A stretch of 64,000 nucleotides of DNA from positions 23,535 to 87,534 of the forward strand of contig JAUYHB010000020.1 of assembly GCA_030690305.1 (NCBI GenBank). Reading direction: 5' to 3'. Origin of the DNA: a bacterium. GTDB taxonomy: Bacteria > Patescibacteriota > Minisyncoccia > Phycocordibacterales > JAGLPS01. The notes below the pieces were generated by a model. It was not told the DNA's origin, searched no databases, and was given only the letters and a program-made list of their open reading frames with translations. Below, piece by piece: positions 1,627-28,856 of this stretch (the first letter of the stretch is position 1; every line of letters begins with the position of its first letter). The position numbers were made by a program, and so were the translations under genes.

Positions 1627-1683
1627 GCCGCTCCTCGCTCGTCAAAATAAACAAAAAAGCGCTTCCGCTTTAGTAGCCAATAC
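1627..1683 (+). repeat. Intergenic repeat family, copy 1 (modules A+B: cgctcctcgctcgtcaaaataaa ... gcgcttccgctttagtagccaatac)
   Basis: Shares its core with copies 2-7. Confidence 0.5.
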
Positions 1684-1713
1684 TTTAATATGGTCGGCCT
1701 AAAAATGCAAGCA

Positions 1714-2337
1714 TCATTGGAACGAAATACCGGTAATAAGAGAGAAGAGAAAGGCGACAATTGGCGTAATAAATCCCCAAAGAAAGAATACAAATATAAG
1801 GAGGAGAAAAAGGCTCCATTCCTCAATGCGGGCCCGCCACTCATAGAGACGGTGCGGAAAAAGGGCAAAAAGGATTTTTGAACCATCAAGCGGTGGGATA
1901 GGGATAAGATTAAAAACCGCCAATATAAGATTTATCTGAACAAGAAGCACCGCGATTGAAAGAAAAGTTTCCGGAAGAAATCCGTATAAAAGACCGAAAC
2001 GCACGAGCAGCCCAAATACGCTAGCGAGTACAAGATTTGTTGCAGGACCGGCGCCGGCGACGAGGGCCTCTCCCCACCTTGGACTTTTAAGGTTGTACGG
2101 ATTGTACGGAACCGGTTTCGCCCACCCGAAAATAAATCCTCCCGCGTAGTAAGAAATCGCGGGAACAATTACCGATCCGAGGGGGTCGATATGGCGAAAC
2201 GGGTTAAGTGTCAGTCTTCCGGAAATTTTTGCCGTATCATCTCCCAGAGCAAGGGCCATATAGCCATGCGACACCTCGTGAGAAACAACGGACATAATAA
2301 GAATGGCTATGGCAAAAATGAAGTCCAACTCTTGCAT
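1714..2337 (-). CDS. Site-2 protease family (peptidase M50) zinc metalloprotease
   Basis: Polytopic membrane protein with an HEVSHG (HExxH) motif and a downstream NLIPIPPLDG motif typical of M50/SpoIVFB-like proteases. Confidence 0.7.
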   Translation of the reverse strand: MQELDFIFAIAILIMSVVSHEVSHGYMALALGDDTAKISGRLTLNPFRHIDPLGSVIVPAISYYAGGFIFGWAKPVPYNPYNLKSPRWGEALVAGAGPATNLVLASVFGLLVRFGLLYGFLPETFLSIAVLLVQINLILAVFNLIPIPPLDGSKILFALFPHRLYEWRARIEEWSLFLLLIFVFFLWGFITPIVAFLFSLITGISFQ

Positions 2338-2381
2338 AGTAATGTCGTTAATGATACCATCAGGTACTAAATTACAAAAAT

Positions 2382-2624
2382 ATGGCTAATATTTGCCCGA
2401 TAACAAACAAATCATCGAAAAACGGCGGTGGCTACAGCAACAGAACGCGTGCCACGCAGTTTAACCCTGTCGGGAAAAGCCGGAAGCAGGTCAACATTCA
2501 GAAAAAGAAAATCTATATTCCGGAACTCAAGAAAACAATTGCTCTGATGCTTTCCACAAAAGCAATAAAGACAATCCAAAAGAACGGTGCTTTCGCCACT
2601 CTAAAAAAAGCAGGCCTTATCTAA
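2382..2624 (+). CDS. rpmB: 50S ribosomal protein L28
   Basis: 80 aa basic protein MANICPITNKSSKNGGGYSNRTRATQFNPV... with the L28-like pattern (C.ITGK...S...T.R.F.PN). It is followed by a GC hairpin plus T-run. Confidence 0.6.
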   Translation: MANICPITNKSSKNGGGYSNRTRATQFNPVGKSRKQVNIQKKKIYIPELKKTIALMLSTKAIKTIQKNGAFATLKKAGLI

Positions 2625-2628
2625 CCCA

Positions 2629-2655
2629 ATCCGCCTCTCGGCGGATTTTAGTTTG
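2629..2655. terminator. Rho-independent terminator-like hairpin (atccgcc-tctc-ggcggat + ttta), shared between rpmB (+) and the convergent MBL gene (-)
   Basis: Perfect 7 bp GC-rich inverted repeat followed by a T-run, seen directly in the sequence. Confidence 0.5.
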
Positions 2656-3502
2656 CAAGTACGGGTTCTCCCCCGTCAGAGGTGAATATGATTGTTCCCA
2701 TTTCATCAGTTCGTACAATTTGTGCGCCAAAATCGGAGAGGGTCTGAAGGACTTCCGCGTGCGGATGCCCATATGAATTATTTTCACCCGCGGAAATCAC
2801 GGCATAGTCCGGAGAAGTCGCGCTTACGAATGCTTTTCCCGTGGAAGTTTTTGACCCGTGATGTCCGGCTTTTAAGACATCAACATCAACGCCTGTTGCG
2901 TTAAGAAATGTAAGATAATTTTCAATTTCTTTCGGAGAATCCCCGGTTAAAAGAAAGGATGATTCCTCATAAGTAAGAATTCCCACGATAGAGGCGGTAT
3001 TCGTTTCAAAATCAGTGACATCTCTGTCAGGAAACAGGACAAGAAAAGAGACGCCACTTCCCAAATTGATTTTCATTCCGCGCCTTGCAAGAATTTTTTT
3101 AGCACCTTCATTAGCAACAGATTTTCCAAGTGTCTTATATATCGCCGTATCGGAGGAAACTCCCGGTTCAATAAAAGTTTTTATATTGAAATGTTCAAAC
3201 ACCGAGGGAAGCCCACCGATATGGTCGGCGTCAGGGTGGGTGGCAAGCACGATATTTATAGATTTATCATATAAGGGCATCACTTTGGAAAGCTGCGAGA
3301 GCACCGCTTTCCCTTTTCCGCCGTCAATAAGCATTTGATTTCCGTTTGGTGCTTGAATAAAAATTGCATCACCTTGTCCGACATCAAGGAAGGTGACAGT
3401 AAGATGTCCCCTCTCTTCGCCATAAACCGCATACCATATAAAACCATTGACAATAAAAAGAAAGACGAGAACAAAAACCCTGAAACGTGTGTAGTAATTC
3501 AT
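2648..3502 (-). CDS. ComEC/Rec2-related metallo-beta-lactamase domain protein with N-terminal TM anchor (stand-alone C-terminal ComEC module)
   Basis: N-terminal hydrophobic helix, then an MBL signature (HPDADHIGG, GHHGS, YGHPH) resembling the ComEC C-terminal domain. The channel-domain ComEC gene is separate at 5587-7080. Confidence 0.65.
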   Translation of the reverse strand: MNYYTRFRVFVLVFLFIVNGFIWYAVYGEERGHLTVTFLDVGQGDAIFIQAPNGNQMLIDGGKGKAVLSQLSKVMPLYDKSINIVLATHPDADHIGGLPSVFEHFNIKTFIEPGVSSDTAIYKTLGKSVANEGAKKILARRGMKINLGSGVSFLVLFPDRDVTDFETNTASIVGILTYEESSFLLTGDSPKEIENYLTFLNATGVDVDVLKAGHHGSKTSTGKAFVSATSPDYAVISAGENNSYGHPHAEVLQTLSDFGAQIVRTDEMGTIIFTSDGGEPVLAN

Positions 3503-3687
3503 TGGAAACTACTTCTGTGTTTACGTTTCTTCAAGTGGGTACTTCGCGTTTTTGTTGGCCTGATGGATACCAAAAATGTTTCCTTCGCTGTCTATGTACA
3601 TGCAAATTGACTACGTGTGTTATTAATACAATGTTTTAGTTAACCTATTTTAGCACAAGGAGATTTTCTTAATTTCTTTAGGCTTGA

Positions 3688-3966
3688 TTATGAAACGTTG
3701 ACGTTTCGTGGAAGCCAATCGATAAGTTTTTTGCGATGCTGGTCAAGCGACCATAGGTTGCCGTGCTTAAAAAGCATTGAGTGTGCGCTTTGAAACTTTT
3801 TTAACAACTCGACAGAGGCGCGCGGATAGCCTTCGGGCATATTTTTATTATAGAATTCCAAAAAAGCAGAAAGAGATATCTGCATTTCGCTCGGTTTTAA
3901 TTCTTTCTCGCGTTTCATCTCATAATAATACCACATATCAATGGAAAAATCAATATTTAAGGCCAA
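3688..3966 (-). CDS. Hypothetical protein (92 aa)
   Basis: ORF of non-repetitive composition in a gap between genes; no recognisable motifs. Confidence 0.3.
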   Translation of the reverse strand: MALNIDFSIDMWYYYEMKREKELKPSEMQISLSAFLEFYNKNMPEGYPRASVELLKKFQSAHSMLFKHGNLWSLDQHRKKLIDWLPRNVNVS

Positions 3967-4021
3967 AAATTATCTGACTTTTTGAATTCAAAAAACACAA
4001 ATGTGATAAAATGGGAATATT

Positions 4022-4615
4022 ATGCATACATACTCACCACAAAAATTCAGCATCCCGACGTTAAAAGGAATCTCGCAAAAGCAGATTGATATACACTTGG
4101 TCCTCTACGATGGATACGTCAAGCACGTCAACCTCATCCGCGAGCGGATACAGGAATTGAACACCGAGCCGGAAAAGAATAATTATCTTGCTTCGGAAAT
4201 CCGTCGTCGCTTCGCTTTTGAATTCAACGGCATGCGTTTGCACGAATTTTATTTCACATCATTTGAAGGAGGCTCCAAGGAAGCGAATACCGAAAGCGAA
4301 TTGGCAAAAAGCGTTTCCGAAAAATACGGAAGCTGGCAAAAGTTTATCGAGCACTTTACGACCGTCGGACTCACGCGCGGAAACGGCTGGTCAATTCTCT
4401 ACTACGACCCCATTGGCAAAACTCCTCATGTCATTTGGGTAGACGAACATCACATCGGGCACCTCGGTTCTTTGCCTGTAATTTTGGCTATGGATATGTG
4501 GGAGCATGCATATATGGTGGACTATCTCCCCGCACAAAAAAAAGAGCATATTACAGCCTTTCTTTCCAACATTAATTGGGAGACTGTGGAAAAAAGATTG
4601 AAAGAGGTCATTTGA
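4022..4615 (+). CDS. sodA: Fe/Mn superoxide dismutase
   Basis: 197 aa with Fe/Mn-SOD motifs (FNGMRLHEFYF, DMWEHAYMVDY). An extended -10-like tgtgataaaat lies upstream. Confidence 0.85.
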   Translation: MHTYSPQKFSIPTLKGISQKQIDIHLVLYDGYVKHVNLIRERIQELNTEPEKNNYLASEIRRRFAFEFNGMRLHEFYFTSFEGGSKEANTESELAKSVSEKYGSWQKFIEHFTTVGLTRGNGWSILYYDPIGKTPHVIWVDEHHIGHLGSLPVILAMDMWEHAYMVDYLPAQKKEHITAFLSNINWETVEKRLKEVI

Positions 4616-4715
4616 CTTCTTGCAAAACAAGACTATTCTACGAGTAGAAGAGAGAGTCTGTTTGAGAGTCTATTTTAAAGATTAAGTTCATTGCCAACCG
4701 AAAAAGGAGGGGGCT

Positions 4716-5459
4716 ATGAGGTATAGAACCTTTATGCTTTTTGTTATTGCAATTGTTACAATCTTTTCGCTCTGCGGATGCGCCGCAACCCAGATTGCAA
4801 TGGAGCACAAAAACCTTGATGTTCAGACAAAAATGTCTGACACCATCTTTCTGTCTCCCGAGGAATTGGGGGACAAAACCGTTTGGGTTGATTTGAAAAA
4901 CACGTCCGACAAAGACGTCGACCTTGGAGGAATCATTTCAACTCTTCAAGCAAGGGGCTATAGAATAGTCTCAAGTTACAAAGAGCCTCACAACCTAAGG
5001 CTTCAGGTTAATTTGCTACAAGCCGAAAAGACATCGCTTTCGGCCGCACAGCAATCGCTTCTCAACGGCTACGGCGGAGCGCTTGTCGGCGGAGTGGCCG
5101 GAGCATCTATCGGATCTCGCGGAGGATACGGAACTGCGGCTGCAGGAGGTATCGGCGGTGCACTTCTGGGAGGACTGATTGAAACAATGATAAACGCGAG
5201 CGTGAAGGACGTAACCTATATGATGGTTACGGACGTGCAGGTTTCCGCCCATTCGAATAAAAAAGTTTCTCAACAAATGGCCGGGAGCATAAGGCAAGGA
5301 ACATCGACCTCTCTGACGCAGAACGTCAGCGACGAGTCGGATTGGATAATTTACAGGACTCGGATAGTCAGCACGGCAAACAAGGTCAACCTGAAATTCC
5401 CTCAAGCATTACCGGAATTGGAGGCTGGCCTCAATCGGGTTATAGGAAATATTCTATAA
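4716..5459 (+). CDS. traT: TraT-family surface-exclusion / complement-resistance-like lipoprotein
   Basis: Signal peptide with an LCGC lipobox. Blocks recalled from F-plasmid TraT match (HKNLDVQTKMSDTIFL..., LKNTSDKDVDLGG, YMMVTDVQVS, YRTRIVSTANKVNLKF), with a central glycine-zipper. Strong RBS aaaggaggg upstream. Confidence 0.7.
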   Translation: MRYRTFMLFVIAIVTIFSLCGCAATQIAMEHKNLDVQTKMSDTIFLSPEELGDKTVWVDLKNTSDKDVDLGGIISTLQARGYRIVSSYKEPHNLRLQVNLLQAEKTSLSAAQQSLLNGYGGALVGGVAGASIGSRGGYGTAAAGGIGGALLGGLIETMINASVKDVTYMMVTDVQVSAHSNKKVSQQMAGSIRQGTSTSLTQNVSDESDWIIYRTRIVSTANKVNLKFPQALPELEAGLNRVIGNIL

Positions 5460-5480
5460 ACGACTCTCTCAAAAACTCAC

Positions 5481-5522
5481 AGCCCGTCTTGATATACATC
5501 AAGACGGGCTGTTTTTTTTTGG
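5481..5522 (+). terminator. Rho-independent terminator after the traT-like gene
   Basis: agcccgtcttg-atatacat-caagacgggct hairpin followed by 10 T. Confidence 0.7.
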
Positions 5523-5541
5523 AAATAAAGGGTATTAAACA

Positions 5542-5626
5542 CTTTGTTTCGACTTCGACTCGAACGCTATGAACATGAAGACATGCTCACACGCTTCTCG
5601 CTCGTCGAAATAAAAATAGAAAAATA
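5542..5626 (+). repeat. Intergenic repeat family, copy 2 (long form: ggtattaaacactttgtttcgacttcgactcg ... cgcttctcgctcgtcgaaataaaaa)
   Basis: 5' and 3' modules are conserved with the other copies; terminal 7 bp inverted repeat tttcgac/gtcgaaa. Confidence 0.6.
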
Positions 5627-7080
5627 AAAATATATAACACAGCGGTTACAAAACCGGACAAATGAATCACCGCGACGGAAAACGGAAGATTTGAAAAGAA
5701 ATGGGCAACGGCAAAAACATATGAAGAAATAATAGAAGTGAAAAGAGAAAATGGCGCTGCAAGCACGGGAGAAAATAAACCGACACACGCCGTCACAAAA
5801 CCGCTAAACATGATAAGCGGAGTAAGAGGGAGGACTAAAAGATTGACCGGAAACGCCATAAGCGGGAACTCCCCTCCCCGGTAAACAATCAAAGGTAAGA
5901 CAAGGAGTTGCGTGGCAATGGTTGCAACGGCAATTTCTTTAAACTGTGCCGGAATTTTTGAAAAATATTTTTCTATGAGGGGAGAAATTGCTATGAGCCC
6001 GAGTGTGGCAAGAAAAGACAACTGGAATGACGGGTCGAAAGCGGCGGTATAAGGATTGAAAAGTATCATAAGAAAAGCGACAAGACATAACAGCCGCACC
6101 GGAGCGGCATGCCGATAAAGCAATTTCCCAAGAATAACAACAAGGGCCATGAGCGCCGCGCGGACAATGCTCGCTTCAAAACCAACCATTGAAACGAACA
6201 GCAACACAAATGTCGACGCGAGGACATATGCGATTGTACGCGGAAGAAAAGAAGAGAAAAGCCAAAGGCTTGCCAGCACCACGAGAGAAATGTTGTAACC
6301 GGACAAAACGACAATATGAATAATGCCCGTTTTCCTGAATTCATCTTCAACATCTTTCGGAATAGACTGTTTTTCACCGAGCAACATTCCCGCAACCAGG
6401 GAAGCGTGCGGTTCCGGAAGAGTGCGGATAAGGCTTTGGGTGAATGTCTTTTTCATGGCAAGCAATTCCCGTCTTAAAGAGAAACTTGCACTCGGCGAAA
6501 CCGATTGTATCTGCACATTTTTTATCGTATACAGAATGCCGTCTTTTTTCAGATACGAAACATAATCGAAGGTAATTCCATATTCATTTTCAAATGACTT
6601 CGGCTTTTCAAGTATGCCTAAAAGGAAAACCGTATCGCCGTACTGAAACGATTGATATGGATCTGTGGTAACAAGAATTTTGTTTTTCTTGGAAAAATTG
6701 GCCGGAATTTCAGTCCCATTTATGTTCTGCGCGAGAAGGATAATCCGAGCGGTCGTGTCCCCTTCCCGCGGCTCATCAACGATAATCCCGGAAACGGAAA
6801 TACGTTCTGAAACAAAATCCGTGAAACGCTCTTGCGGAACAGCGAAATGGAAACGTAATGACCCGAAAGCAAATGCCAAAAAGAAAACTGCCAGAGAGGC
6901 AAGCGGCACAAAGATTTTTCCGCGCGTTTTCTTCAGAAAGAAAAAATACACAAAGAGATAAAAGGAAATGAGAAAGAAAAAACAAATTGAATAAATATCA
7001 AGAGAAACAAAAGAGCGGAGGAAAACTCCGCCCACAAAGCCGAAAAATAAACTATACAACCCTGCCGCCAAGCCCTTCAT
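5587..7080 (-). CDS. comEC: DNA internalization competence protein ComEC/Rec2 (DUF4131 + competence channel domain; lacks MBL domain)
   Basis: 497 aa polytopic membrane protein. The N-terminal OB/DUF4131-like region and multi-TM competence domain are typical of ComEC. Its start overlaps the rnhA stop. Confidence 0.75.
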   Translation of the reverse strand: MKGLAAGLYSLFFGFVGGVFLRSFVSLDIYSICFFFLISFYLFVYFFFLKKTRGKIFVPLASLAVFFLAFAFGSLRFHFAVPQERFTDFVSERISVSGIIVDEPREGDTTARIILLAQNINGTEIPANFSKKNKILVTTDPYQSFQYGDTVFLLGILEKPKSFENEYGITFDYVSYLKKDGILYTIKNVQIQSVSPSASFSLRRELLAMKKTFTQSLIRTLPEPHASLVAGMLLGEKQSIPKDVEDEFRKTGIIHIVVLSGYNISLVVLASLWLFSSFLPRTIAYVLASTFVLLFVSMVGFEASIVRAALMALVVILGKLLYRHAAPVRLLCLVAFLMILFNPYTAAFDPSFQLSFLATLGLIAISPLIEKYFSKIPAQFKEIAVATIATQLLVLPLIVYRGGEFPLMAFPVNLLVLPLTPLIMFSGFVTACVGLFSPVLAAPFSLFTSIISSYVFAVAHFFSNLPFSVAVIHLSGFVTAVLYIFIFLFLFRRARSV

Positions 7081-7771: not shown

Positions 7772-7795
7772 TACACTCAGTATAACAAGAAAGAT

Positions 7796-12248: not shown

Positions 12249-13691
12249 TCAGATTTCTTTCCAGGAAATCGTTGAATACTGGTCGGAGGTCAAAGGAAAG
12301 TTCGGTGGAGGGCCGTATAAGAGATTGCCGTCGTAAATAATGTTTCTTGTTTCATAGCCGGTACCGTTGGTATACGCAAAACCATAACGTTGGTACGTGG
12401 CTATCATTCCATACGAAGTAATAGTGTCTCTGTCATGATACGGGGAACAACGTTGGGAACCTCCTGAAGGTGGAGCGTAATAAAACCGTCCGACTCGACC
12501 ATTCTGGGCAACAAGAGCGGCATCAATACGCAAATCGTTTTCGGATACCATACCTATGTTTATATTTCGTTGGGCAATAAGGGCAATAACGTCCTGGCCG
12601 TCATAATTTGTGTACAGAAGATCATTATTTACGGTAATGTCGCGGCGTTGTGTCGGATTATCCGGAAAACGTCCCGCGGCAATAGTGAGACGGGCCGTAT
12701 TTATGGTTCCATTTACCCACACATGGTCTTCAAGAAAAATGAGACCATTTGCCGGATTGGCGTATGTTCCGAGAAGTTGCTGGGTATTGATACTCCACGT
12801 TCCCCAGTTTTCTTGAGATGAAGCGCATCCCGACGGAGTCGAGACGACCGTATTGACGCGATACAAGTCAAACGTGTCGTTTGTTTTAAGCACAATATGG
12901 TATCCGAGTGAACCGGACGCGGCAAAATACCTTCCACCGGATTGCGCGAGGGCCTTTATATTGGAAAGGTCCGAAGTGATTCCCAAAAAGTCAACGGGGG
13001 CGACCGGGTATTGCCGTCCGGCCTCAAAGACATCGGGACGCAATGGCGGGTTCGTAGGAGGCACAGGATCCGCTGGGGAAAGACACGTGTGCACCGCCCA
13101 TGAGGCGACGGTACACGCATCGGAGTCGCTGTCTGTTGTTGTACTTTGACCGCTTGTGACAATATTGTGGGCCAAACCGTCAAAACGGATTCCGAAATTC
13201 GAGTGAATGGGCCCGAACACTTCGGTCCCTTCTCCAAAGCGCATTCTGTCACTTGCCACTACAGCGTATTTAGCAAAAGACGGAATGGCAAGACGGACCT
13301 CTATGGCACGGGACACGGAAATAGGCGACGTGACAATTCCTGTTGACCGAACAGTCACTATGGTTGAGCCCGTAGCAGGAGGAGTAATATCGAGTCTGTA
13401 CTGTCCGATTGTGTTTCCGTCCTTATCGTAAAAATCGTGATAATACGGGCCGGGACCTCCGGTTCCATCCTGATAATCATCGGCGTCATGAGCAAGATGC
13501 CAACGATAATAGTCGGCGCCGGCTTCGGCAATTTGGAACGCCTGTTCCCGGACTTCAATGTGCCGGATAGCCTTAAGCAAAAGCGAAGTCCAACTCACAA
13601 AGGCCGTTGTCACCACAATTGCGATGAAAGCGAAAACAAGGACGTTAACGATGATGACTCCCCTATTCTTTTTTCTTATGTCGTCTCTCAT
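12249..13691 (-). CDS. PilX-like type IV pilus minor component (PilX_N domain)
   Basis: N-terminal TM followed by the QAFQIAEAG motif of the PilX N-terminal domain, then a large Thr/Gly-rich extracellular region. Last gene of the pilus block. Confidence 0.55.
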   Translation of the reverse strand: MRDDIRKKNRGVIIVNVLVFAFIAIVVTTAFVSWTSLLLKAIRHIEVREQAFQIAEAGADYYRWHLAHDADDYQDGTGGPGPYYHDFYDKDGNTIGQYRLDITPPATGSTIVTVRSTGIVTSPISVSRAIEVRLAIPSFAKYAVVASDRMRFGEGTEVFGPIHSNFGIRFDGLAHNIVTSGQSTTTDSDSDACTVASWAVHTCLSPADPVPPTNPPLRPDVFEAGRQYPVAPVDFLGITSDLSNIKALAQSGGRYFAASGSLGYHIVLKTNDTFDLYRVNTVVSTPSGCASSQENWGTWSINTQQLLGTYANPANGLIFLEDHVWVNGTINTARLTIAAGRFPDNPTQRRDITVNNDLLYTNYDGQDVIALIAQRNINIGMVSENDLRIDAALVAQNGRVGRFYYAPPSGGSQRCSPYHDRDTITSYGMIATYQRYGFAYTNGTGYETRNIIYDGNLLYGPPPNFPLTSDQYSTISWKEI

Positions 13692-17361: not shown

Positions 17362-19119
17362 TTATTCCGAGGAGACGACCCGCAAAACTTCTTCAACGGT
17401 GGTAAGCCCCTGTGCGGATTTAAACAGCCCATCTTCAATCATGGTCATCATGCCCTCCTTCTTTGCCTGATCGTCTATGGCCTGCACCGGCGCGCCTTTA
17501 ATAATAAGATCCTTAATTGGAGGAGTCACTCGGAGCACTTCATAGATTCCTATGCGACCGGCATATCCGTCCGGAGCATCCGCGGATTTTTTTGGATGAT
17601 ACAGAGGAACTTGCGACCAATCGACGTCTTCTTTGACAATTTTTTCCTTTTTGAGAAAACCTAGAACTTTTTCCATATCAACGGAACTTTCGAGAGATTT
17701 AATTTCGTTCTTACTTAGGAAATACTCTTCTTTTGCACCTGAAAGTTTTCTGATGAGACGTTGGGCAATGACGATGTTTAAAACCGACACAAGAAGGAAT
17801 GGTTCGACTTTCATATCAACAAGACGAGGGATGGCTCCAGCAGCCGAGTTTGTGTGCAGAGTTGAAAGAACCAAATGACCGGTAAGAGAGGCGTTAACGG
17901 CAAGAGAAGCCGTTTCACCGTCGCGGATTTCACCAACCATGATAATGTCCGGATCCTGACGGACAAGCGTGCGCAAGCCGCTTGAAAACGTAAATCCGAT
18001 TTCCGGTTTTACCTGCGTCTGGTTGATTCGTTTCATTTGATACTCAATCGGGTCTTCAATGGTTGAAATATTCACATCGGGGGTATTGAGAATATCAAGC
18101 ATCGTATACAGAGTTGTTGTTTTTCCTGAACCCGTCGGACCAGTGGTTAAAATAATTCCCGTCGTGAGATTCATTGCGGTATGAATACTCTCGAGCGCCT
18201 CTCCGTGAAAACCAAGTGCTTCAAGGGTGAACCCGGAAACGCTTTCGCGGAGCACGCGCATCACGGTTTTTTCACCAAAATATGTCGGAAGCGTGGATAC
18301 GCGGAATGACACATTTTCACCGTTCAGCTCGATTTTGAAACGCCCGTCTTGCGGAAGACGTTTTTCGTCAAGTTTAAGATTTGAAAGCACTTTGATACGG
18401 GCGGTGATGGAGGGTGCACTGTTTTTGGGAAGTACCATGGCATCATGCAACAAACCGTCAATACGGTATCGGACAAGCAACTGTTCTTCCATCGGTTCAA
18501 TATGAATGTCAGAGGCATTTTGAATAATTGCGTGTTTGAGGAGTGTATCGACAATACGGATGACAGGAATGTCTTCGGCAAGTTTCTTCAGGTCGCTTTC
18601 CGACGCATCTCCCTCCCCCCCCTGTTCCGAAATCATCTTAAGAGAGGTCGCCTCCTTTTGAATAATGTCGCCAAATTCCGCCTTGAGGCTCTTTTGATAC
18701 TGCAACAGAGCACTTTTCATCGATTCCTTGTCGGTAAGCCGCGGAAGAATTTTTAAACCGGTTTTTTTCTTGATAAAGTCGATAGCCGCCAGGTCTTCGG
18801 TATCAAGCATTGCGACTTCAAGAGTTTTATCCGCGACCCGGAAAGGAATAATATTGTGGTTGCGCGCGATGGGCTCAGGGATGAGAGAAAGCACGTCAAA
18901 ATTTATTTTTTCTCCCTTCAAGTCCACAAAAGGAATACCGAGAATATGCGCCTGAATCTTCCTCAGGTCGTCATCGGTAATTTTTCCTTCTTCCACGAGT
19001 AATTGACCGACGCTTACTTTGCGCTCGGATGCTTTTTTATCCGCGGACTCAAAATCTTCCCGAGAAATCAGGTCGGAATCAAGGATAAATTCTTTTAATT
19101 GGGTTTCCTCAATGTGCAT
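17362..19119 (-). CDS. pilB: Type IV pilus assembly ATPase PilB (GspE family)
   Basis: Walker A GPTGSGKTT, Asp/His boxes, GspE N-terminal domain. Start chosen at MHIEETQL. Confidence 0.85.
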   Translation of the reverse strand: MHIEETQLKEFILDSDLISREDFESADKKASERKVSVGQLLVEEGKITDDDLRKIQAHILGIPFVDLKGEKINFDVLSLIPEPIARNHNIIPFRVADKTLEVAMLDTEDLAAIDFIKKKTGLKILPRLTDKESMKSALLQYQKSLKAEFGDIIQKEATSLKMISEQGGEGDASESDLKKLAEDIPVIRIVDTLLKHAIIQNASDIHIEPMEEQLLVRYRIDGLLHDAMVLPKNSAPSITARIKVLSNLKLDEKRLPQDGRFKIELNGENVSFRVSTLPTYFGEKTVMRVLRESVSGFTLEALGFHGEALESIHTAMNLTTGIILTTGPTGSGKTTTLYTMLDILNTPDVNISTIEDPIEYQMKRINQTQVKPEIGFTFSSGLRTLVRQDPDIIMVGEIRDGETASLAVNASLTGHLVLSTLHTNSAAGAIPRLVDMKVEPFLLVSVLNIVIAQRLIRKLSGAKEEYFLSKNEIKSLESSVDMEKVLGFLKKEKIVKEDVDWSQVPLYHPKKSADAPDGYAGRIGIYEVLRVTPPIKDLIIKGAPVQAIDDQAKKEGMMTMIEDGLFKSAQGLTTVEEVLRVVSSE

Positions 19120-20438: not shown

Positions 20439-20440
20439 GG

Positions 20441-22528: not shown

Positions 22529-22560
22529 TCCCCCGACATTGTTTGTCGGGGGTTTTTTAT
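22529..22560 (+). terminator. Rho-independent terminator after hppA
   Basis: cccccgaca-ttgtt-tgtcggggg hairpin followed by tttttt. Confidence 0.7.
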
Positions 22561-22635
22561 TTATAATTTCAGAACACCTTTCTTGTAAGCCCTCCGTTTT
22601 GAAAGTTATAAATTTAATATTCGTCTGTATACACT

Positions 22636-23274: not shown

Positions 23275-23286
23275 TTTCTTATCATT

Positions 23287-23628
23287 ATGGATAACCAAAA
23301 TATCTCAAATACAAACATGAATTCGAGGGATAACATGCAAAATCCTCTCCCAAACAAGCCAGTGGCTTCTTCCGTCGGACCGCTCGTCGGAATAATTATC
23401 GTCGTCATTATTATTGTTCTCGGTGGGATGTATTTTTGGGGACAACGAGTAGACAGGAGCGGAATAGATCCAATGCTTGAGAATGATGCGATGACTCAAT
23501 CTCTTGAAAACCAAAGTTCATCGGACGACCTTACTGCCATTGAAGCGGATATAGATAACACCGATCTTGAGAATCTTGACGCCGAGCTCAACCAAATAAA
23601 CTCCGATTTGGAAGCATCCGGGCTCTAG
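23287..23628 (+). CDS. Small single-pass membrane protein with acidic C-terminus (hypothetical)
   Basis: One TM helix (LVGIIIVVIIIVLGGMYFW) and a D/E-rich tail; a terminator follows. Confidence 0.4.
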   Translation: MDNQNISNTNMNSRDNMQNPLPNKPVASSVGPLVGIIIVVIIIVLGGMYFWGQRVDRSGIDPMLENDAMTQSLENQSSSDDLTAIEADIDNTDLENLDAELNQINSDLEASGL

Positions 23629-23644
23629 TGTCCATTTCTGCCCG

Positions 23645-23674
23645 CCACCCCGTTTCAAGCGGGGTGGTTTTTGC
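23645..23674 (+). terminator. Rho-independent terminator
   Basis: ccaccccg-tttcaa-gcggggtgg hairpin followed by ttttt. Confidence 0.65.
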
Positions 23675-23715
23675 TAGACAACAAAAAGAAGAACGGATAG
23701 ACTAAGAACTTAATT

Positions 23716-24771
23716 ATGTCGGAACAAAAAACACATTACCAAAATATCAAAGTGACCGCGCTTCCGGATGCGGAAGTGGAAATTGAGGGTGAAATTGACG
23801 CCCAAAGAATGAACGATTTGAGAAATAAGGCGCTCGACACAATTTCAAAAGAAATTGAAATTCCCGGTTTTCGCAAAGGCAAGGCGCCAACTGAAATCGT
23901 GGTTAAGAAAGTCGGAGAAATGCGCCTCCTTGAAGAAGCCGCGGAAATGGCTCTGCAGGAGGAATATCCGATTATTCTGTTCAATGAAAAAATAAACGCT
24001 ATCGGGCTTCCTCATATTCATATCACCAAACTCGCCCCCGGAAACCCCCTTGGATTCAAATTACATACTGCGGTTATGCCGACGATAACGCTCCCCGACT
24101 ATATGCGTATCGCTAAAACCGAAATGGAGAAAAAAGACAGTGTCGAGGTGGAAGAGAAAGAAATCGACCGCGTCATTGAGGAAATACGCAAACAAAAAGC
24201 GGGGAAAAAAGAAAAAGACGCTTCGGAAGAAAACGAACTTCCAGCGCTTACTGATGAATTTGTGAAATCCCTCGGAAATTTTGAGCATGTTGAAGATTTT
24301 AAAAATAAAATAAAGGAAAATCTCTCGTACGAGAAAAAAATCAAAGCGAGAGAGAAAAAAAGAGGGGCAACGATAGACGAACTTCTAAAAAAATCCTCGA
24401 TAACGTTGCCGAAAATTTTGATTGTAAACGAACTTGAAAAAATGCTTTCCCAATTTACGGGCGAAGTCGAGCACATGGGAATCACATGGAATGATTACCT
24501 TGCGCAGACAAAAAAAACCGAGGAAGAGCTCAAAAACGAATGGAGACCGACAGCAGAAAAAAGAGCTAAAACCCAGCTTATTTTGGATGAAATCGCCGTA
24601 AAAGAAAAAATAGAGCCGGAAGAAGACCAGGTGAAAAAGGAGGTGGAACATATTCTCTCCCACTATCCGAAAGCCGACCCGGAACGGGCTCGTGTGTACG
24701 TCAAAGGAATTTTAAGAAACGAAAAGGTTTTTGAGTTTCTTGAATCAGGCCTCGCCAAAGAAAGCGAATAA
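23716..24771 (+). CDS. tig: Trigger factor (short form, apparently lacking the PPIase domain)
   Basis: N-terminal ribosome-binding signature PGFRKGKAP. At 351 aa versus about 430 aa, the FKBP-like middle domain appears absent. Confidence 0.6.
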   Translation: MSEQKTHYQNIKVTALPDAEVEIEGEIDAQRMNDLRNKALDTISKEIEIPGFRKGKAPTEIVVKKVGEMRLLEEAAEMALQEEYPIILFNEKINAIGLPHIHITKLAPGNPLGFKLHTAVMPTITLPDYMRIAKTEMEKKDSVEVEEKEIDRVIEEIRKQKAGKKEKDASEENELPALTDEFVKSLGNFEHVEDFKNKIKENLSYEKKIKAREKKRGATIDELLKKSSITLPKILIVNELEKMLSQFTGEVEHMGITWNDYLAQTKKTEEELKNEWRPTAEKRAKTQLILDEIAVKEKIEPEEDQVKKEVEHILSHYPKADPERARVYVKGILRNEKVFEFLESGLAKESE

Positions 24772-24802
24772 AGATTCCCAGGGCAAAGCCCCGAGGAATT
24801 AA

Positions 24803-24920
24803 CCTTTGTTTCGTCTTCGCTCGCAGGTCATGAGAGCACAGTACCGCTCTCGCGACACCGCTCGCTCGCCGAAATAAAAAGTACCGAGCCTTTTGTTGTT
24901 GTTTAGACAATAAGCAAAAG
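24803..24920 (+). repeat. Intergenic repeat family, copy 4 (long form + B module, after tig)
   Basis: ttaacctttgtttcgtcttcgctcgc ... ccgctcgctcgccgaaataaaaa ... gtttagacaataagc. Confidence 0.6.
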
Positions 24921-25595
24921 TGAGGCGGCGGCAAGAGCCGCCGTTTCGCTTTTAAGAGTCATTGTGCCAAGACTGAGCGACGGAATATTTTTTTCTCCGA
25001 AGATTTCTTTTTCTTTCTCGCTCCAACCTCCTTCCGGCCCGATAAATACGGCCACGGTGTTTTCTGAGGCAGAGTGGGTAAACACCGCCCCCGCAGCATC
25101 AAAAAAAATAGCGGGTACGGAAAGTGTCTCAAGTGCCTCTTTCAAAGAAACAACCGGGTGCAGGGTTGGAAGCACGGCGTGCCCGGATTGTTCCGCCGCC
25201 TCCACAAGAATACGTTTCAGCCGTTCGAGATTTAAATTCTTTTTTTCGCTTCTTTCGGAGATAACGGGAACAAAGTGCGACACGCCGATTTCAGTTCCCT
25301 TCTCAACCACCCATTCGAATTTATCTTTTTTTATAAGAGAGGAATAAAGCCAGACTTCCCGTTTTGGTATGACAATATTTTTTTGAGAGCTCAAAACGGA
25401 AAGGACTGCGTTTTGTTTTGTTAAAACGGAGATTTCACATAAAAAATCAAAACCGGAACCGTTAAACAATACAACGCGCTCCCCCGCCTTAAAACGAAAC
25501 ACATTCCGCCATTGATTAAGAGTGTCGGTGTTTTCTATATCAAGCGTCTTTTTTGATGCAAAAGATGAGTCAATAAAAAATCTATGAATGCGCAT
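24903..25595 (-). CDS. rsmE: 16S rRNA (uracil1498-N3)-methyltransferase
   Basis: MRIHRFF start, PUA-like N-terminus and a SPOUT C-terminal domain ([12 protein letters not shown]). Confidence 0.75.
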
Positions 25596-25689
25596 AGGGT
25601 CAGTATGGGCAAAGCATTCTTCTTGCGCAAGTTATTTGAAATTATCGTCAACTTGTTATATTGTGTTGACATTAATCATTGAAACAACC

Positions 25690-26274
25690 ATGTTAATTCC
25701 AACAGTTATCGAAAAATCACAGTTTGGAGAACGGGCATATGACATCTATTCCCGCCTTTTGCGCGACAGAATCATATTTCTCGGAGGGCCGATTGACGAC
25801 AACGTGGCGAACATCGTCATTGCCCAGCTTCTCTTTCTTGAATCCGAAGACCCTAAAAAGGATGTGGAACTTTATGTCAACTCTCCCGGCGGCTCCGTTA
25901 CCGCAACCCTTGCCATTATAGACACAATGACCCACATCAAACCCGACGTTAAAACCTTTTGCATCGGTCTTGCCGCATCGGGAGCAGCCTGGATTCTTTC
26001 TTCCGGGGCAAAAGGCAAGCGTGCCATCCTGCCAAACGGAGAAGTTATGATTCATCAACCGTTGGGCGGCGCAGAAGGGCAGGCAACCGACATTGAAATT
26101 TCGGCAAAACACATACTCAAACTGCGAGACAAGCTTAATAAAATAATGTCAAAAAACACGGGGAAATCTCTTTCGGAAATAGAAAAAGACGTGGAACGCG
26201 ACTTTTTCATGAGTGCCGAGGAAGCGGTTAAATATGGAGTCGCGGATATGGTACTTGAAAAGAAACAAAAATAA
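25690..26274 (+). CDS. clpP: ATP-dependent Clp protease proteolytic subunit
   Basis: ClpP motifs ([11 protein letters not shown], Ser in GLAASGAAW, His in MIHQPLGG). Start at MLIPTV (25690). Confidence 0.9.
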
Positions 26275-26287
26275 AAAGTTTTGAACT

Positions 26288-26364
26288 TTTTGTTGTCGTC
26301 GCTCGTTCGGAAATAAAAAAGGGAGCTTTTTTATTCCACTTACTCGCTAGACAATAACAAAACC
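26288..26364 (+). repeat. Intergenic repeat family, copy 5 (short A + B module, after clpP)
   Basis: tttttgttgtcgtcgctcgttcggaaataaaaaa ... ttccacttactcgctagacaataacaaaacc. Confidence 0.6.
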
Positions 26365-26386
26365 CCGCCTCTCGGCGGGGTTTTCG
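26362..26386 (+). terminator. Rho-independent terminator downstream of clpP
   Basis: ccccgcc-tctc-ggcgggg hairpin followed by tttt. Confidence 0.6.
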
Positions 26387-26616
26387 CAAAAACCGGGCCC
26401 GTTTACAAAACAGAAAAAACCTTATACTATTAGGGCGTTAATCAAATTAATTTTTACGCTTCCGCTTTTTGGTATGCACCCCTACCTTCACACTCAGAGG
26501 AGAAAAGATGACAATCTGGATGATCTAGAGGATATTCGTTAAAATCAGAGGTTTTTCTATCTATTTCCTTAAATGTAATAAGGCTGGGATTCTAAAAAGC
26601 GAGGGGTAACGCTACC

Positions 26617-28146
26617 ATGTCATTAAAAATAGCGCTTCTCTTCGCTCTTTCGGCAGCACTCCTTGGAGTGGCGTTTGGTTATTTCCTGCGATGGATTATC
26701 TCGCTGGGAAACAAGACGTCCATGGAGCTGCGAATCAAGCAGATGTTGCTTGAGGCGAAAGACGGAGCCACGCGCATTGCCGCTGAGGCAGAAAAGAAAG
26801 CCGAGGAAACTCTAAAAGAGGCTCGGGTAGAGATAAAGGGAAAAGAAGACAGTCTTAAAAAAACCGAGGAGCGTCTCGTTAAAAAAGAAGAATTCCTCGA
26901 TAAACGACAGGTTGATATCGACAAAGAAGTCGAGAATATAAAGCAGAAAATCACCGAAATAAAGACGATTCGAGAAAAAACAGACGCTCTTGAAGTCGAA
27001 CGAAAGGGCGCTCTTGAAAAAGTGGCCCGATTAAGCGCGGAGGAAGCAAAAAAAGAAATTATGGAAATTGTCGAGAAGGAAACCGAGGAAGATCTTCTTG
27101 TCCGGATGCAAAAACTTGAGGCTTTTGGAAAAGAGAAGCTTGAGCGCAGAGCGCGTGAAATACTCACGACATCCATTCACCGGTATGCCAACTCCGTCTC
27201 TTCGGACATCATGACAACAACAGTTGCCATTCCGTCGGATGAAATAAAAGGAAAAATCATCGGGAAAGAAGGAAGGAATATCAAAGCATTTGAACGCGCG
27301 AGTGGTATTGAAGTTATTGTTGACGACACGCCGGGACTTATTACCCTCTCATCATTCGACCCCGTACGACGTCAAGTTGCCAAAGTAGCTCTTGAAAAAC
27401 TTATCGCGGACGGGCGTATTCAACCTGCAAAAATCGAGGAAATGATGGAAAAAGCAAAGCAGGAAATCAATGAAACAATAAAAGAAAAGGGTGAGCAGGC
27501 CGTGTATGAATGCGGAGTGTACAATCTTGACTCACGTATTGTTGCCATTCTTGGACGCCTCCACTATCGCACCAGTTACGGACAAAATGTTTTGCAGCAC
27601 TCGATTGAAATGGCGCATATCGCAGGTATGATTGCCGAGGAGATAGGCGCCGATGTCTATGTTGCCAAGGCAGGAGCATTGCTTCACGATATTGGAAAAG
27701 CGGTTGACCATGAAGTTGCCGGAACGCATGTTGAAATAGGTATCCGTATACTCCAAAAATTCGGTGCCGATGAAAAAATTATCAAAGCGATGCGTTCTCA
27801 TCATGACGAATACCCCTATGAGACGCCGGAATCATACGTTGTGCAGGCCGCAGATGCGATTTCCGGAAGCCGTCCAGGCGCGCGGCGTGATACCGTGGAA
27901 AATTACCTTAAACGGCTTGGAGACCTTGAGGCTGTTGCCAATTCGTTTTCCGGCGTTGAGAAGGCGTACGCCATTTCCGCCGGTCGTGAGGTAAGAATTT
28001 TCGTGAGATCGGAGGAAATTTCCGACCTCGATGCCCAAAAACTGGCTCGTGATATAGCTCTACGGATAGAACAGGAGCTTAAATACCCCGGTGAAATCAA
28101 GGTAAACGTTATCAGGGAAACGCGCGCTATTGAATTCGCACGATAA
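26617..28146 (+). CDS. rny: Ribonuclease Y
   Basis: N-terminal TM, coiled-coil, KH domain (GKIIGKEGRNIKAFE) and HD domain (LLHDIGKAVDHE). Confidence 0.9.
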   Translation: MSLKIALLFALSAALLGVAFGYFLRWIISLGNKTSMELRIKQMLLEAKDGATRIAAEAEKKAEETLKEARVEIKGKEDSLKKTEERLVKKEEFLDKRQVDIDKEVENIKQKITEIKTIREKTDALEVERKGALEKVARLSAEEAKKEIMEIVEKETEEDLLVRMQKLEAFGKEKLERRAREILTTSIHRYANSVSSDIMTTTVAIPSDEIKGKIIGKEGRNIKAFERASGIEVIVDDTPGLITLSSFDPVRRQVAKVALEKLIADGRIQPAKIEEMMEKAKQEINETIKEKGEQAVYECGVYNLDSRIVAILGRLHYRTSYGQNVLQHSIEMAHIAGMIAEEIGADVYVAKAGALLHDIGKAVDHEVAGTHVEIGIRILQKFGADEKIIKAMRSHHDEYPYETPESYVVQAADAISGSRPGARRDTVENYLKRLGDLEAVANSFSGVEKAYAISAGREVRIFVRSEEISDLDAQKLARDIALRIEQELKYPGEIKVNVIRETRAIEFAR

Positions 28147-28157
28147 AGGATATTAAT

Positions 28158-28234
28158 CCTTTGTTGCCGTCGCTCGTTCGGGAAGTAAAAATAAGAATTT
28201 TTCTTTCCGCTCACTCTCTAGGCAATAAAAAACC
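28158..28234 (+). repeat. Intergenic repeat family, copy 6 (short A + B module, after rny)
   Basis: ggatattaatcctttgttgccgtcgctcgttcgggaagtaaaaa ... ttccgctcactctctaggcaataaaaaacc. Confidence 0.6.
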
Positions 28235-28249
28235 TTTGTGTAAAGCCCT

Positions 28250-28277
28250 TGCGGGAGAAAAACCCTTGTATATAATT
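28250..28277 (+). promoter_or_regulatory. Sigma70-like promoter candidate for hup (TTGCGG-16nt-TATAAT)
   Basis: Near-consensus -35/-10 with canonical spacing, about 90 bp upstream of the hup start. Confidence 0.4.
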
Positions 28278-28366
28278 ACTTTAAGGCTTAACTCAGGCTT
28301 TTCGCTGTTCTTAGAGCTTGGGTTCCAGGGGGTCGAGAGAATTATTAGTAAACCTACAAGGAATCT

Positions 28367-28639
28367 ATGAACAAACAATCAATCGTAGACGTTGTCGCGG
28401 AAAAAATCGGCGTAACGAAAACCCAAGCAGAACAAGCTGTAGACGCTTTTATTGACTCTATTGTTTCAACTTTGACAAAAGGCGAAGAAGTTTCGATAGC
28501 TGGTTTGGGAATTTTTGCAACCAAAACACGTGCAGCGCGACAAGCTCGTAACCCAAGAACTGGTGCAACTATTCAGGTCCCTTCGATGAAAGTTCCGAAG
28601 TTCCGACCCGCCAAGGCTCTTAAAGATGCAGTCAAGTAA
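28367..28639 (+). CDS. hup: DNA-binding protein HU
   Basis: 90 aa with HU/IHF fold motifs (GLGIFATKTRAARQARNPRTG). Confidence 0.9.
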   Translation: MNKQSIVDVVAEKIGVTKTQAEQAVDAFIDSIVSTLTKGEEVSIAGLGIFATKTRAARQARNPRTGATIQVPSMKVPKFRPAKALKDAVK

Positions 28640-28662
28640 AATTTTTCTCTAGAGGAAAAAAC

Positions 28663-28694
28663 AAAATCCGCCCAGAAGGCGGATTTTGTTTTTA
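28663..28694 (+). terminator. Rho-independent terminator after hup
   Basis: aatccgcc-caga-aggcggatt hairpin followed by ttgttttt. Confidence 0.7.
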
Positions 28695-28765
28695 TGCGGG
28701 TAGGGAGAATCGAACTCCCGACCACAGTTTGGAAAACTGTTGTTTTACCACTAAACTATACCCGC
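28695..28765 (-). tRNA. tRNA-Gly (anticodon TCC)
   Basis: Manual fold: acceptor GCGGGTA/TACCCGC, D-arm GTTT/AAAC, anticodon stem ACAGT/ACTGT with loop TTTCCAA, T-arm GGGAG-TTCGATT-CTCCC. No encoded CCA. Confidence 0.85.
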
Positions 28766-28780
28766 AGATAAAGGTATTCA

Positions 28781-28856
28781 CCTTTGCTTCGTTGTCGCTC
28801 GGACACCATGAAACCTAGAAGTTTTCGCGGCGCTTCTCGCTCGACGAAGTAAAAAC
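28781..28856 (+). repeat. Intergenic repeat family, copy 7 (long form, beside tRNA-Gly)
   Basis: aggtattcacctttgcttcgttgtcgctcgg ... cgcttctcgctcgacgaagtaaaaa; terminal inverted repeat cttcgt/acgaag. Confidence 0.6.

Follow-up and report, generated by a model that had tools for sequence, protein, structure and literature searches.

In Enterobacteria, the REP and BIME elements, like the REPINs of Pseudomonas, are short extragenic imperfect palindromes with conserved mismatches; they are present in many copies, for the most part at gene 3' ends and rarely between divergent genes, and are mobilised by RAYT enzymes of the Y1 HUH type. Their arrangement is mosaic and sometimes tandem, their stems covary, their outermost ends have no terminal inverted repeats, and when transcribed they form hairpins in the 3' untranslated region (UTR). 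The Rickettsia palindromic elements (RPE), reportedly described by Ogata et al. in 2000, are said to lie in frame inside protein genes of a reduced genome without destroying these genes. Patescibacteria (candidate phyla radiation, CPR) have genomes of less than 1 Mb that are gene-dense and usually called streamlined. The BOX elements of Streptococcus pneumoniae are composite boxA-boxB(n)-boxC repeats, interpreted as parasitic by the authors of PMC3049150, and MITEs (miniature inverted-repeat transposable elements) are strictly defined as AT-rich and highly base-paired, with terminal inverted repeats and a target-site duplication (PMC3049150). Described here is a repeat family from a 64-kb stretch of the tiny genome of a patescibacterium, one of the Paceibacteria (GenBank assembly GCA_030690305.1, contig JAUYHB010000020.1, positions 23,535 to 87,534 of the forward strand; the whole stretch is called the window in the following). 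The repeats of the window are probably non-autonomous, hairpin-rich, selfish mobile repeats of the REP/BIME, BOX or RPE kind.

The repeat unit leads from an (A)TAA through a hairpin, P1, the 5' arm of a stem, P2 (TTTGTTTCGNC), a 5' loop, a hairpin, P3, a 3' loop and the 3' arm of P2 (GNCGAAATAA) to a terminal TAA. Copies were located with two covariance models: R1, the seed of which consists of five window copies and two copies from relatives, and R2, which was made from 104 metagenome copies only and contains no window sequence. The window has seven copies, all on the plus strand, between 1.5 and 29 kb:

1578-1650, plus strand: copy g; P1 minimal (AAAAA/TTTTT), P2 TTTGTTTTAAC/GTCAAAATAAA, P3 short; R1 E 3.9e-4 (outside the seed), R2 E 6.9e-8
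5526-5613, plus strand: copy a; P1 AAAGGGTATTAAACACTTT, P2 formed by 5543-5553 with 5604-5614, P3 GAACATG..CATGCTC; z-score of the fold -2.87, R2 E 6.4e-21
20436-~20503, plus strand: copy f; left TAA is the nusA stop; truncated/degenerate; repeat family D3, R1 E 0.016 (outside the seed)
24769-24877, plus strand: copy b; left TAA is the tig stop; medium form, P2 TTTCGTC/GCCGAAA, P3 GAGAGC..GCTCTC; z -3.48, R2 E 7.7e-17
26272-26357, plus strand: copy d; left TAA is the clpP stop; P1 AAAAAGTT/AACTTTTT, P2 TTGTTGTC/GACAATAA; repeat family D4, R2 E 3.6e-10
28144-28228, plus strand: copy e; left TAA is the rny stop; P1 AAAGGAT/ATCCTTT, P2 TTTGTTGCC/GGCAATAAA, P3 AT-rich; z -3.29, R2 E 2.8e-9
28769-28852, plus strand: copy c; P2 CTTCGT/ACGAAG, compensatory relative to copy a; R2 E 1.1e-20

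The family covers about 2% of this 29-kb stretch, and nothing beyond the seven copies was found by R1 on both strands of the 64 kb; the part from 29 to 64 kb was empty in the searches with either model. Copy g lies antisense between the stop of the M50 peptidase gene (1714) and the start of rpsL (1566), 14 nt from the rpsL ATG, copy a between the terminator of a TraT-like gene and the 3' end of comEC, and copy c between tRNA-Gly(TCC) on the minus strand and the promoter of a trypsin-like protease gene. In copy b, P1 bears an extra GC hairpin (CCAGGGCAAAGCCCCGAGG), and P3 of copy d is an AT-rich hairpin (GGAAATAAAAAAG/CTTTTTTATTCC). Copy f has kept P1, the 5' arm of P2 and the 5' loop (21 nt identical to copy d), has lost the 3' loop, and gave no match with R2 at E<=1. 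The repeats are well above chance: with up to 3 mismatches, CGCTCGTTCGGAAATAAA has 3 matches in the window where dinucleotide shuffles give 0.19, CTCGCTCGNCGAARTAAAA has 4 matches (0.14 expected), and a 24-mer formerly taken as a third module has 2 (0.00 expected). The seven copies of the original prediction, which was made from the letters of the window alone, are thus real and at or near the places where it had put them, as is also seen from the matches to R1 and R2.

The anatomy of the unit had been seen differently in that prediction. Folding and alignment do not uphold its division into short forms (about 32 bp) and long forms composed of three modules, as copies d and e are full units and only copy f is a truncated 5' half. 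The supposed short core CGCTCGTTCGGAAATAAA is the 5' loop together with the start of the AT-rich P3 in d and e, the supposed further module (..CTCGCTAGACAATAA / TTCCGCTCACTCGCTAGACAATAA) is the ordinary 3' loop and P2 arm of the same two copies, and what had looked like terminal inverted repeats of 6-7 bp is the P2 stem, which is internal and covaries. Five copies were said to start 2-40 bp after a stop codon; for four of the seven (f, b, d and e) the stop codon of the gene (nusA, tig, clpP and rny, respectively) itself serves as the left TAA, and copy a starts 66 nt past the TraT stop.

Two conserved loops, TCGCTCGGA and CTCCTCGCTAG, surround the variable P3 hairpin, the 5' loop having the form (T)TCGCTCG(GA) and the 3' loop the form CTYCTCGCT(C/A)G. 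Together with GGTATT these two are the conserved single-stranded motifs of the unit, and TCGCT(C/A)G occurs in every unit two to four times on the same strand and nearly without variation. P1 has the pattern AAAGGnT..AnCCTTT with compensatory variants in copy d (see above) and in copy f (TAAGG/CCTTA), and P2 of copies d and e is TTGTC/GACAA and TTGCC/GGCAA, respectively. Units in the window measure about 70-110 bases, and in the family overall 70-165 nt with two to four different hairpins. The full unit has about 165 nt: one or two GC hairpins, with GGTATT after each, are enclosed by an outer P1 stem (AAAGGTTC...GAACCTTT), and then comes a long imperfect hairpin with P2 (TTTCGTC/GNCGAAA) around the mismatched loops TTCGCTCGGA and CTCCTCGCTAG and P3. 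Its 5' part is composed of AATAAAGGT, TCC, a hairpin A (e.g. CTCGGGGCAAAGCCCCGAG), GTATTGGAGGAAC, TCGCTTCGCTCG, N7 and a hairpin B, and its 3' part after hairpin B of GGTATTGAACC, TTTAATTCGTC, TTCGCTCGGAC, P3, GCTCCTCGCTAG and ACGAAATAA. Compared with this unit, the copies of the window are forms with internal deletions, with one GC hairpin kept in copy b and only AAAGGT joined to ATTAAACC in copies a, c, e and f; judged from the sequences, such deletions plausibly arose between the GGTATT direct repeats.

Some subfamilies differ in the 5' box (ATATAACTGGGTACAATG) or in the loops (L017, L049, L056), and others contain one more hairpin module, of about 57 nt (L120, L099, L194). This extra module, GCACCACA..CTTCTTGTT..AACAATGTC, is found between the P2 arm and GCTCGGAC (L120 595-760, L099/L173, L194 3560-3733) and is in L194 present as a tandem duplicate, which points to a modular growth of the element. 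The subfamily with divergent loops (L017 4985-5060, L049 347-416, L056 4535-4619) has the same architecture with a GGTATTAAnCC box and carries the loops TCCTCGGCTCG ... GCTCGCTCTAYGTCG.

The structure of the unit is under selection. In the alignment of the 104 metagenome sequences, 84.5% of the cells are paired versus 68.8% in shuffles and 35-46% in slid registers, changes on both sides are seen in 18 of the 24 pairs, including all 13 pairs of P3, and the observed covariation score was reached by none of 500 shuffles. A set centred on the window (five window copies and those of two related loci, L004 and L039) has 90.5% pairing in P2 and five compensatory pairs. For the long forms, the RNAalifold consensus adds the hairpins A and B and an outer P1 that covaries (A-U 5 and U-A 5 at one pair); it also offers possible GC/GC and GGA/UCC pairs inside the "loops", and these candidate pairs are invariant. 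A search for P1 partners by a strict 8-bp criterion, which is too stringent, found 11 of 99 versus 7 in the control. Folding and covariation of aligned copies had been proposed as a check from the beginning, and a conserved structure is what came out. As to the level at which this structure acts, G.U pairs (120) are about as frequent as A.C pairs (110), and a palindrome at the level of DNA therefore fits better than an RNA, with the reservation that three positions dominate this count and make it weak evidence.

The family exists independently of this genome, because six of the window copies (a, b, c, d, e and g) match R2, the model that consists of metagenome copies only, with E values from 6e-21 to 7e-8. 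The pattern used in the metagenome search was GCTCGGAYN{15,45}CTCGCTNGNCRRARTAA, and it has matches in at least 120 stretches; the metagenome counts of 104 copies, 100 loci and 117 matches that are used throughout are among the matches listed. Among these, match lengths cluster at 48-65 nt where 40-70 were allowed, and the upstream arm TTTCGTCTTC and the P3 hairpin are common to nearly all stretches. The 100 loci contain 117 matches, about 17 of them being extra copies. Metagenome contigs with copies are about 1 kb to 510 kb long, and the carriers are many related uncultured lineages from groundwater and sediment, with many copies in the ERZ1292xxx assemblies of the Hainich groundwater series. 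The same pattern, searched in 2.9 million viral contigs, has no match there. In related GTDB species, nine of 80 syntenic loci have together 12 matches on both strands. The homologous elements in relatives that had been suggested as a check are at hand. A literature search for CPR or Parcubacteria together with MITE, REP or interspersed repeats found no description, and the repeat family is previously undescribed. As a side observation, in L145, L157 and L166 (around L145 2882-4027) a unit lies beside an open reading frame (ORF) with a Pfam match to LAGLIDADG endonucleases; the neighbouring sequence looks, by eye, like 23S rRNA, and the unit would then be in or beside an rRNA intron region.

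That the repeats are mobile is suggested by their sharp boundaries, by presence and absence at given sites, by the lack of shared sites, by both orientations, by tandem copies and by the lack of a protein family that recurs next to the copies. The boundaries are seen from the information content, which is at background 1-3 nt past the right TAA (A 73%, 54% and 54%) and 2-3 nt before the left TAA. At the 3' end of rny (copy e) and at the tRNA-Gly/protease promoter (copy c) the window has a unit where L004 and L039 have an empty site, in both cases with a clean gap of about 82 nt and conserved flanks. RNase Y has the same length in all three, and the stop of rny in L004 and L039, where the site is empty, is TAG. 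The reverse is found at the 3' end of the HU gene, where a unit of about 80 nt separates the TAA from (A)ATYTTTTCTCTAGAG in L039 and is missing from the window. L004 has at this HU site (6626-6690) a different insert of about 45 nt, TCGTCTAGATTTATTTACTCTAAGACATCGTCTTGGAGATA, before the conserved CTCTAGAGG. Altogether, the seven copies of the window and the four of L004 and L039 have no common insertion site despite conserved gene order.

The plus orientation that had been noted for all copies holds for the window (seven of seven) and does not hold beyond it, where both orientations are seen in relatives and on metagenome contigs. Of the copies between co-directional genes, 28 are sense and 20 antisense; 16 copies lie between convergent and 6 between divergent genes, and 16 are inside called ORFs; a co-oriented ORF ends upstream of 54 copies, and a convergent ORF stands at the right end of 60. 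Opposite orientations are found on one and the same contig within a few kb (L155, L128, L131, L117 and also L039), and one copy, in L062, lies antisense in the leader of the HU gene. Tandem head-to-tail copies share the TAA at their junction (L148, L118, L128, L162), which in L148 reads ..GTCAAAATAA directly followed by AGGGTGG... The contigs from the same strain give no view of the turnover below the species level: compared with contig JAXMJZ010000026.1 (metagenome-assembled genome (MAG) GCA_034375565.1) and two Logan assemblies, the window has 2 mismatches in 21.2 kb, and these Logan and NCBI contigs, 99.99-100% identical to it, carry no information on within-species polymorphism.

The TAA accompanies the unit in most copies. 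Among copies found by covariance model, (A)TAA is present on the right in 16 of 18 and on the left in 14 of 18, and TAA is present also in empty sites. With a TAA on both sides, the element can sit on a TAA stop and leave the protein unchanged. In addition to the four stops in the window, the left TAA is a stop codon in 11 of the 56 metagenome copies with a recognisable left end, as compared to 3.7% of all TAA trinucleotides. We infer from all this a mobility in trans through a single-strand intermediate, with TAA as the target or as a target-site duplication. An enzyme supplied in trans would recognise the folded strand by the conserved loops and mismatches, as invariant mismatched loops in covarying stems are just what is expected of a recognition surface. 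The unit would insert at (A)TAA in an A-rich context and leave a TAA at both ends, and if it inserts on a stop, the left TAA would keep the gene closed. In a gene-dense genome (about 90% coding), insertions would survive mainly in short spacers and exactly on TAA stops, which would account for the position right after stops and for the co-orientation with the plus-strand genes between 19 and 29 kb. Copies would be gained and lost faster than species diverge, and effects on neighbours, such as hairpins in 3' UTRs, new C-terminal codons and in-frame peptide insertions, would be by-products.

Two examples of such by-products can be given. The ComEC ORF on the minus strand (5587-7080; Pfam DUF4131 and Competence) ends inside copy a:

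5587-5613, minus strand: tail of ComEC (..FRRARSV*); the ORF's last 7 codons plus TGA, which match the reverse complement of copy a over its 3' loop and P2 arm

Going by this match, copy a appears to have supplied ComEC with a new C-terminus and stop, and an ORF of the opposite strand ends inside the element in 17 of the 117 metagenome copies. The second example is from L039 (12420-12700), where a unit in reverse orientation (12476-12549) and 5' modules lie in frame inside the ORF of the trypsin-like protease and lengthen it by about 57 residues, placed behind a conserved N-terminal helix with homology to the window protein (MNVFLKF.. versus MNIFFRF..).

Several points weigh against a mobile repeat. 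A duplication of the TAA is indistinguishable from a fixed flank together with a fixed end, because the right TAA is paired in P2 (T-A in 91 and G/A-T in 90 of 104 copies) and because in one subfamily, the left flank of which is ATATAG and not ATAAAG (TAAAGG to TATAGG), the left TAT covaries with P1 by a compensating change in the 3' arm. A functional RNA, too, would be compatible with covariation this strong and with invariant loops. The copies within the genome are only about 60-75% identical, with no sign of recent transposition, and the same orientation of all seven has a two-sided probability of about 0.016 under random orientation, which the plus-strand position of the genes that lend their stops explains only in part. 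In the strict sense the unit is no MITE, for lack of inverted repeats at its outermost ends. None of the ORFs in the window has a transposase Pfam domain, and a search of the window and about 2 Mb of loci gave neither a partner insertion sequence (IS) nor a mobilising enzyme. A tblastn search with an IS200 TnpA query gave only spurious matches of E~1 (unrelated short ORFs, tRNA DNA, a PBP-like gene), and a scan for left-end motifs that have no right end nearby gave chance matches and one divergent subfamily copy only. In L131, an inverted pair of units flanks an ORF of 195 aa, which has no Pfam match. When 591 neighbouring ORFs were clustered all against all, no recurrent family appeared, the largest cluster comprising 5 loci, a result that for its part counts in favour of mobile units; the top clusters are PBP, MreB, aminoacyl-tRNA synthetases, GreA, DsbA, XerC/D and the LAGLIDADG endonuclease.

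Compared with the known systems, the family is closest in behaviour to REP/BIME, BOX, RPE and the IS200/IS605-derived palindrome-associated transposable elements (PATEs) and is a member of no named family; it is a new small interspersed palindromic repeat within a familiar kind of element. With REP and BIME it shares, the RAYT enzymes apart, the features named at the outset, and its placement is of the REP type, that is, extragenic, in many copies (seven in 29 kb), with 44 of 70 between co-directional genes and with the excess of convergent over divergent sites (16 versus 6). Unlike these, it has no GTAG-type head and no sequence similarity to them, measures 70-165 nt instead of the 20-40 nt of a REP palindrome, has a TAA at both ends and two to four different hairpins, and lives in another phylum, the Patescibacteria; moreover, the searches of the window and the loci (with the IS200 TnpA query mentioned above) turned up no RAYT gene. 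Like BOX, the family is composite, with hairpin modules in varying number between a fixed 5' and a fixed 3' module, has extensive secondary structure, is intergenic, sometimes modifies gene ends, is transcribed with its neighbours and turns over slowly. BOX has ends similar to the terminal inverted repeats of ISSpn2 and has a candidate transposase (PMC3049150), whereas the ends here are asymmetric with no partner IS known; the modules are unrelated in sequence, and a link to TAA is not a feature of BOX.

The in-frame protease copy of L039 and the ComEC tail of the window are reminiscent of RPE, but most copies here are intergenic or on stops, there is no sequence relation, and RPE are not known to be tied to TAA. 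MITEs (Correia, RUP, Nezha) are likewise small, non-coding and highly base-paired, are flanked by a short direct repeat, which here is TAA, have size variants by internal deletion, and differ in presence between relatives, but the present family has its inverted repeat (P2) in the interior and no known IS with ends that match, and its copies within the genome are divergent. The PATEs have asymmetric ends, hairpins just inside both ends and a fixed left flank, here (A)TAA. The ends of the unit are indeed unlike each other, the left continuing after TAA as AGG(G)TATT.. and the right being ..CGAAATAA (reverse complement TTATTTCGNC...), and the P2 inverted repeat begins 15-100 nt inside the left end. 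A T-rich segment 5' of P2, CTTTG, can pair either with AAAG on the left (P1) or with TAAA on the right (distal P2), which recalls the pairing of guide and cleavage site in IS200/IS605, an analogy that may serve as a lead only. Different from PATEs, no TnpA or TnpB was found (window and loci), the left and right hairpins are dissimilar, and there is no evident bias to a replication strand, as orientation is mixed on single contigs; in the window all seven copies are on one strand, with dnaA at 60.3 kb, and the contigs with opposite orientations are those given above.

The best surviving alternative, in itself unlikely, is that the repeat, under host selection, acts in cis as an RNA element in 3' UTRs, which would protect against 3' exonucleases, be processed by RNase Y or RNase III, or attenuate read-through. 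Four window copies stand between a stop and the next promoter or terminator and are hence transcribed in sense, the window copies have stable folds (z -2.9 to -5.2), the window encodes PNPase, a 3' exonuclease, and there are fewer copies between divergent than between convergent genes. REP hairpins stabilise mRNA. Effects on expression are known for transcribed interspersed repeats, as BIMEs attenuate transcription and ERIC and Correia trigger RNase cleavage (PMC3049150). Against such a role, sense is about as frequent as antisense (28:20 and 54:60), no position is conserved between related species, and copy g and the L062 copy lie antisense in 5' leaders. There is also no excess of G.U pairs and no U tract after the hairpin. 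It is plausible that a 3' UTR function on the sense strand exists as a side effect of the four sense copies.

An intrinsic terminator or attenuator was also considered as such and rejected, since an A run and not a U tract comes after the P2/P3 hairpin and the terminator scan does not call the units; this confirms the earlier view that the repeats are not classical terminators. Canonical terminators are called separately at 22530-22552, 23644-23668 and 26359-26384, the last one directly 3' of copy d. A promoter in the unit (a -10 box TATTAA in GGTATTAAACC, or TAGACAAT) was rejected as well, as there is no conserved -35 and copies d and g have the hairpin but not the box; the actual promoters of the HU and protease genes are outside the units.

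The repeats could also be a new class of multi-copy structured non-coding RNA genes, acting in trans or spreading as RNA by retro-mobility, which is quite improbable. It would be in line with the very strong covariation in P1, P2, P3 and the extra hairpins, the multi-helix junction, the conserved hairpin loops GCAAG / GCAGAG and the G.U pairs conserved at fixed positions (columns 5-75 and 29-51), and also with the absence of the family from Rfam: with Rfam 15 at gathering score only tRNAs were found in the window and in 15 loci with full-length units, and at E<=5 nothing was found over the units between 24.7 and 29.0 kb of the window. Against this, units abut or overlap stop codons, and one lies in frame inside an ORF; there are seven copies in 29 kb, A.C pairs are as frequent as G.U pairs, no promoter or terminator is conserved around the units, and some copies are truncated or decayed (copy f and remnants). 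Known RNA families and ribozymes were rejected, there being no Rfam match and, by eye, no fit to the hammerhead core CUGANGA..GAAA. The options of an RNA signal or a small RNA gene, which the original prediction had listed beside the REP/MITE-like one, are not supported as the primary role, in view of the near-random orientation, the lack of a G.U excess and of an Rfam match, and the antisense and in-frame copies; the REP/MITE-like option is the one that the discrete units and their distribution bear out.

Still less probable, and hardly to be expected, is a function as host DNA sites bound by a nucleoid or architectural protein, after the model of HU, IHF or gyrase on BIMEs, with the direct TCGCT repeats as a putative recognition sequence and the palindromes extruding as cruciforms. 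The nearly invariant TCGCT(C/A)G on one strand of each unit would suit such a protein, and the symmetry of G.U and A.C pairs fits a duplex palindrome, the function of which would be independent of orientation. Sites of this kind do not explain turnover, however: positions differ between species, the spread is uneven with none in 29-64 kb, and insertions in coding sequence and tandem copies look parasitic.

There is next to no chance that small peptides are encoded by the units. Such an ORF would begin at the ATG in P3 and end with the terminal TAA (11-15 aa ending ..RS(S/P/T)K in copies a, b, c and g). This frame is kept in all four suitable window copies, L039(-) and L010, but of the 104 metagenome copies only 10 are open between the conserved RTG and that TAA. 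No such ORF exists in copies d, e, L004, L079 and L062, and the ATG belongs to the conserved P3 stem (CCATG/CATGG or CGCGG), in which changes are stem-compensatory and not synonymous. Integron attC sites were rejected too, since the core sites RYYYAAC ... GTTRRRY are absent and the neighbours are syntenic housekeeping genes.

Apart from full copies, the window has some smaller pieces, one of them directly 3' of copy b:

24886-24912, plus strand: candidate remnant consisting of P2 only, CCTTTTGTTGTTGTTTAGACAATAAGC; weak R1 match at 24890-24921, E 2.3

A similar mini-hairpin, TTTTTGCTAGACAACAAAAAG, is located at 23668-23690, just past the terminator upstream of tig. Both look like P2 arms of the d/e subtype plus CTAG with the interior deleted, and from their sequences they may be remnants of decay or excision. 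A weak R2 match (E 0.37) at 23365-23398, TTCTTCCGTCGGACCGCTCGTCGGAATAA, lies within a hypothetical ORF of 103 aa and is partly repeated at 18132-18176; it resembles a unit that has no P3 and may be a chance match.

The genes that flank the repeats are housekeeping genes, and nusA, tig, clpP, rny and the HU gene are syntenic in 80 related genomes. The nearest relatives of RNase Y (66-80% identity) are all from patescibacterial MAGs (Paceibacteria, Zambryskibacteria, Taylorbacteria and similar labels). The genes in the different parts of the window are:

1-9 kb: rpsG, rpsL (minus strand), M50 peptidase, L28, SodFe, TraT-like, ComEC, RNase H
19-30 kb: nusA, H+-PPase, tig, rsmE (minus strand), clpP, rny, HU, tRNA-Gly, trypsin-like protease
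60-63 kb: dnaA (60.3 kb), dnaN

Genes like those of type IV secretion systems (T4SS; a TraG P-loop ATPase and a T4SS pilin) are found at 53910-57713, upstream of yidC, dnaA and dnaN, and the GC content goes down to 0.37 in the last 4 kb (60001-64000), which are probably the origin region. At the HU gene, the window has tRNA-Gly(TCC), and L004 and L039 have tRNA-Gly(GCC) there with the TCC gene distal; the two paralogous tRNA-Gly genes (28694-28766 and 31052-31125) are swapped between these close relatives. At 30307-30349 there are 43 nt with 77% identity to part of the adjoining tRNA-Pro (30223-30294), which have the appearance of a partial tRNA duplication or pseudo-tRNA.

For the Patescibacteria, a phylum considered poor in mobile DNA, the finding means that a structured and widespread repeat family is present. 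As the repeat supplies stops and C-terminal residues, as in ComEC, and extends ORFs, as in the protease of L039, gene callers and comparative analyses of MAGs will be misled if it is not masked, and like other interspersed repeats it can break contigs in assembly. The covariance model is a marker for the typing of strains and for tracking gain and loss in time-series metagenomes, and the conserved loops in covarying stems are a precise substrate for finding the mobilising enzyme. If it is true that sense copies stabilise transcripts or alter their processing, the family shapes the expression of core genes (nusA, tig, clpP, rny and the rpsL operon). Beyond a mobile repeat of a familiar kind, it is conceivable, if on the unlikely side, that the unit is part of a new CPR mobility system, in which an enzyme yet to be found would read the loops of the folded strand and the T-rich segment would pair with an A/TAA target and so direct integration to TAA, stops included, or that it is a new widespread class of structured RNA that spreads as a retro-element. 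Should either be true, the unit would be a covariation-supported substrate for a new transposase or guide-like targeting mechanism.

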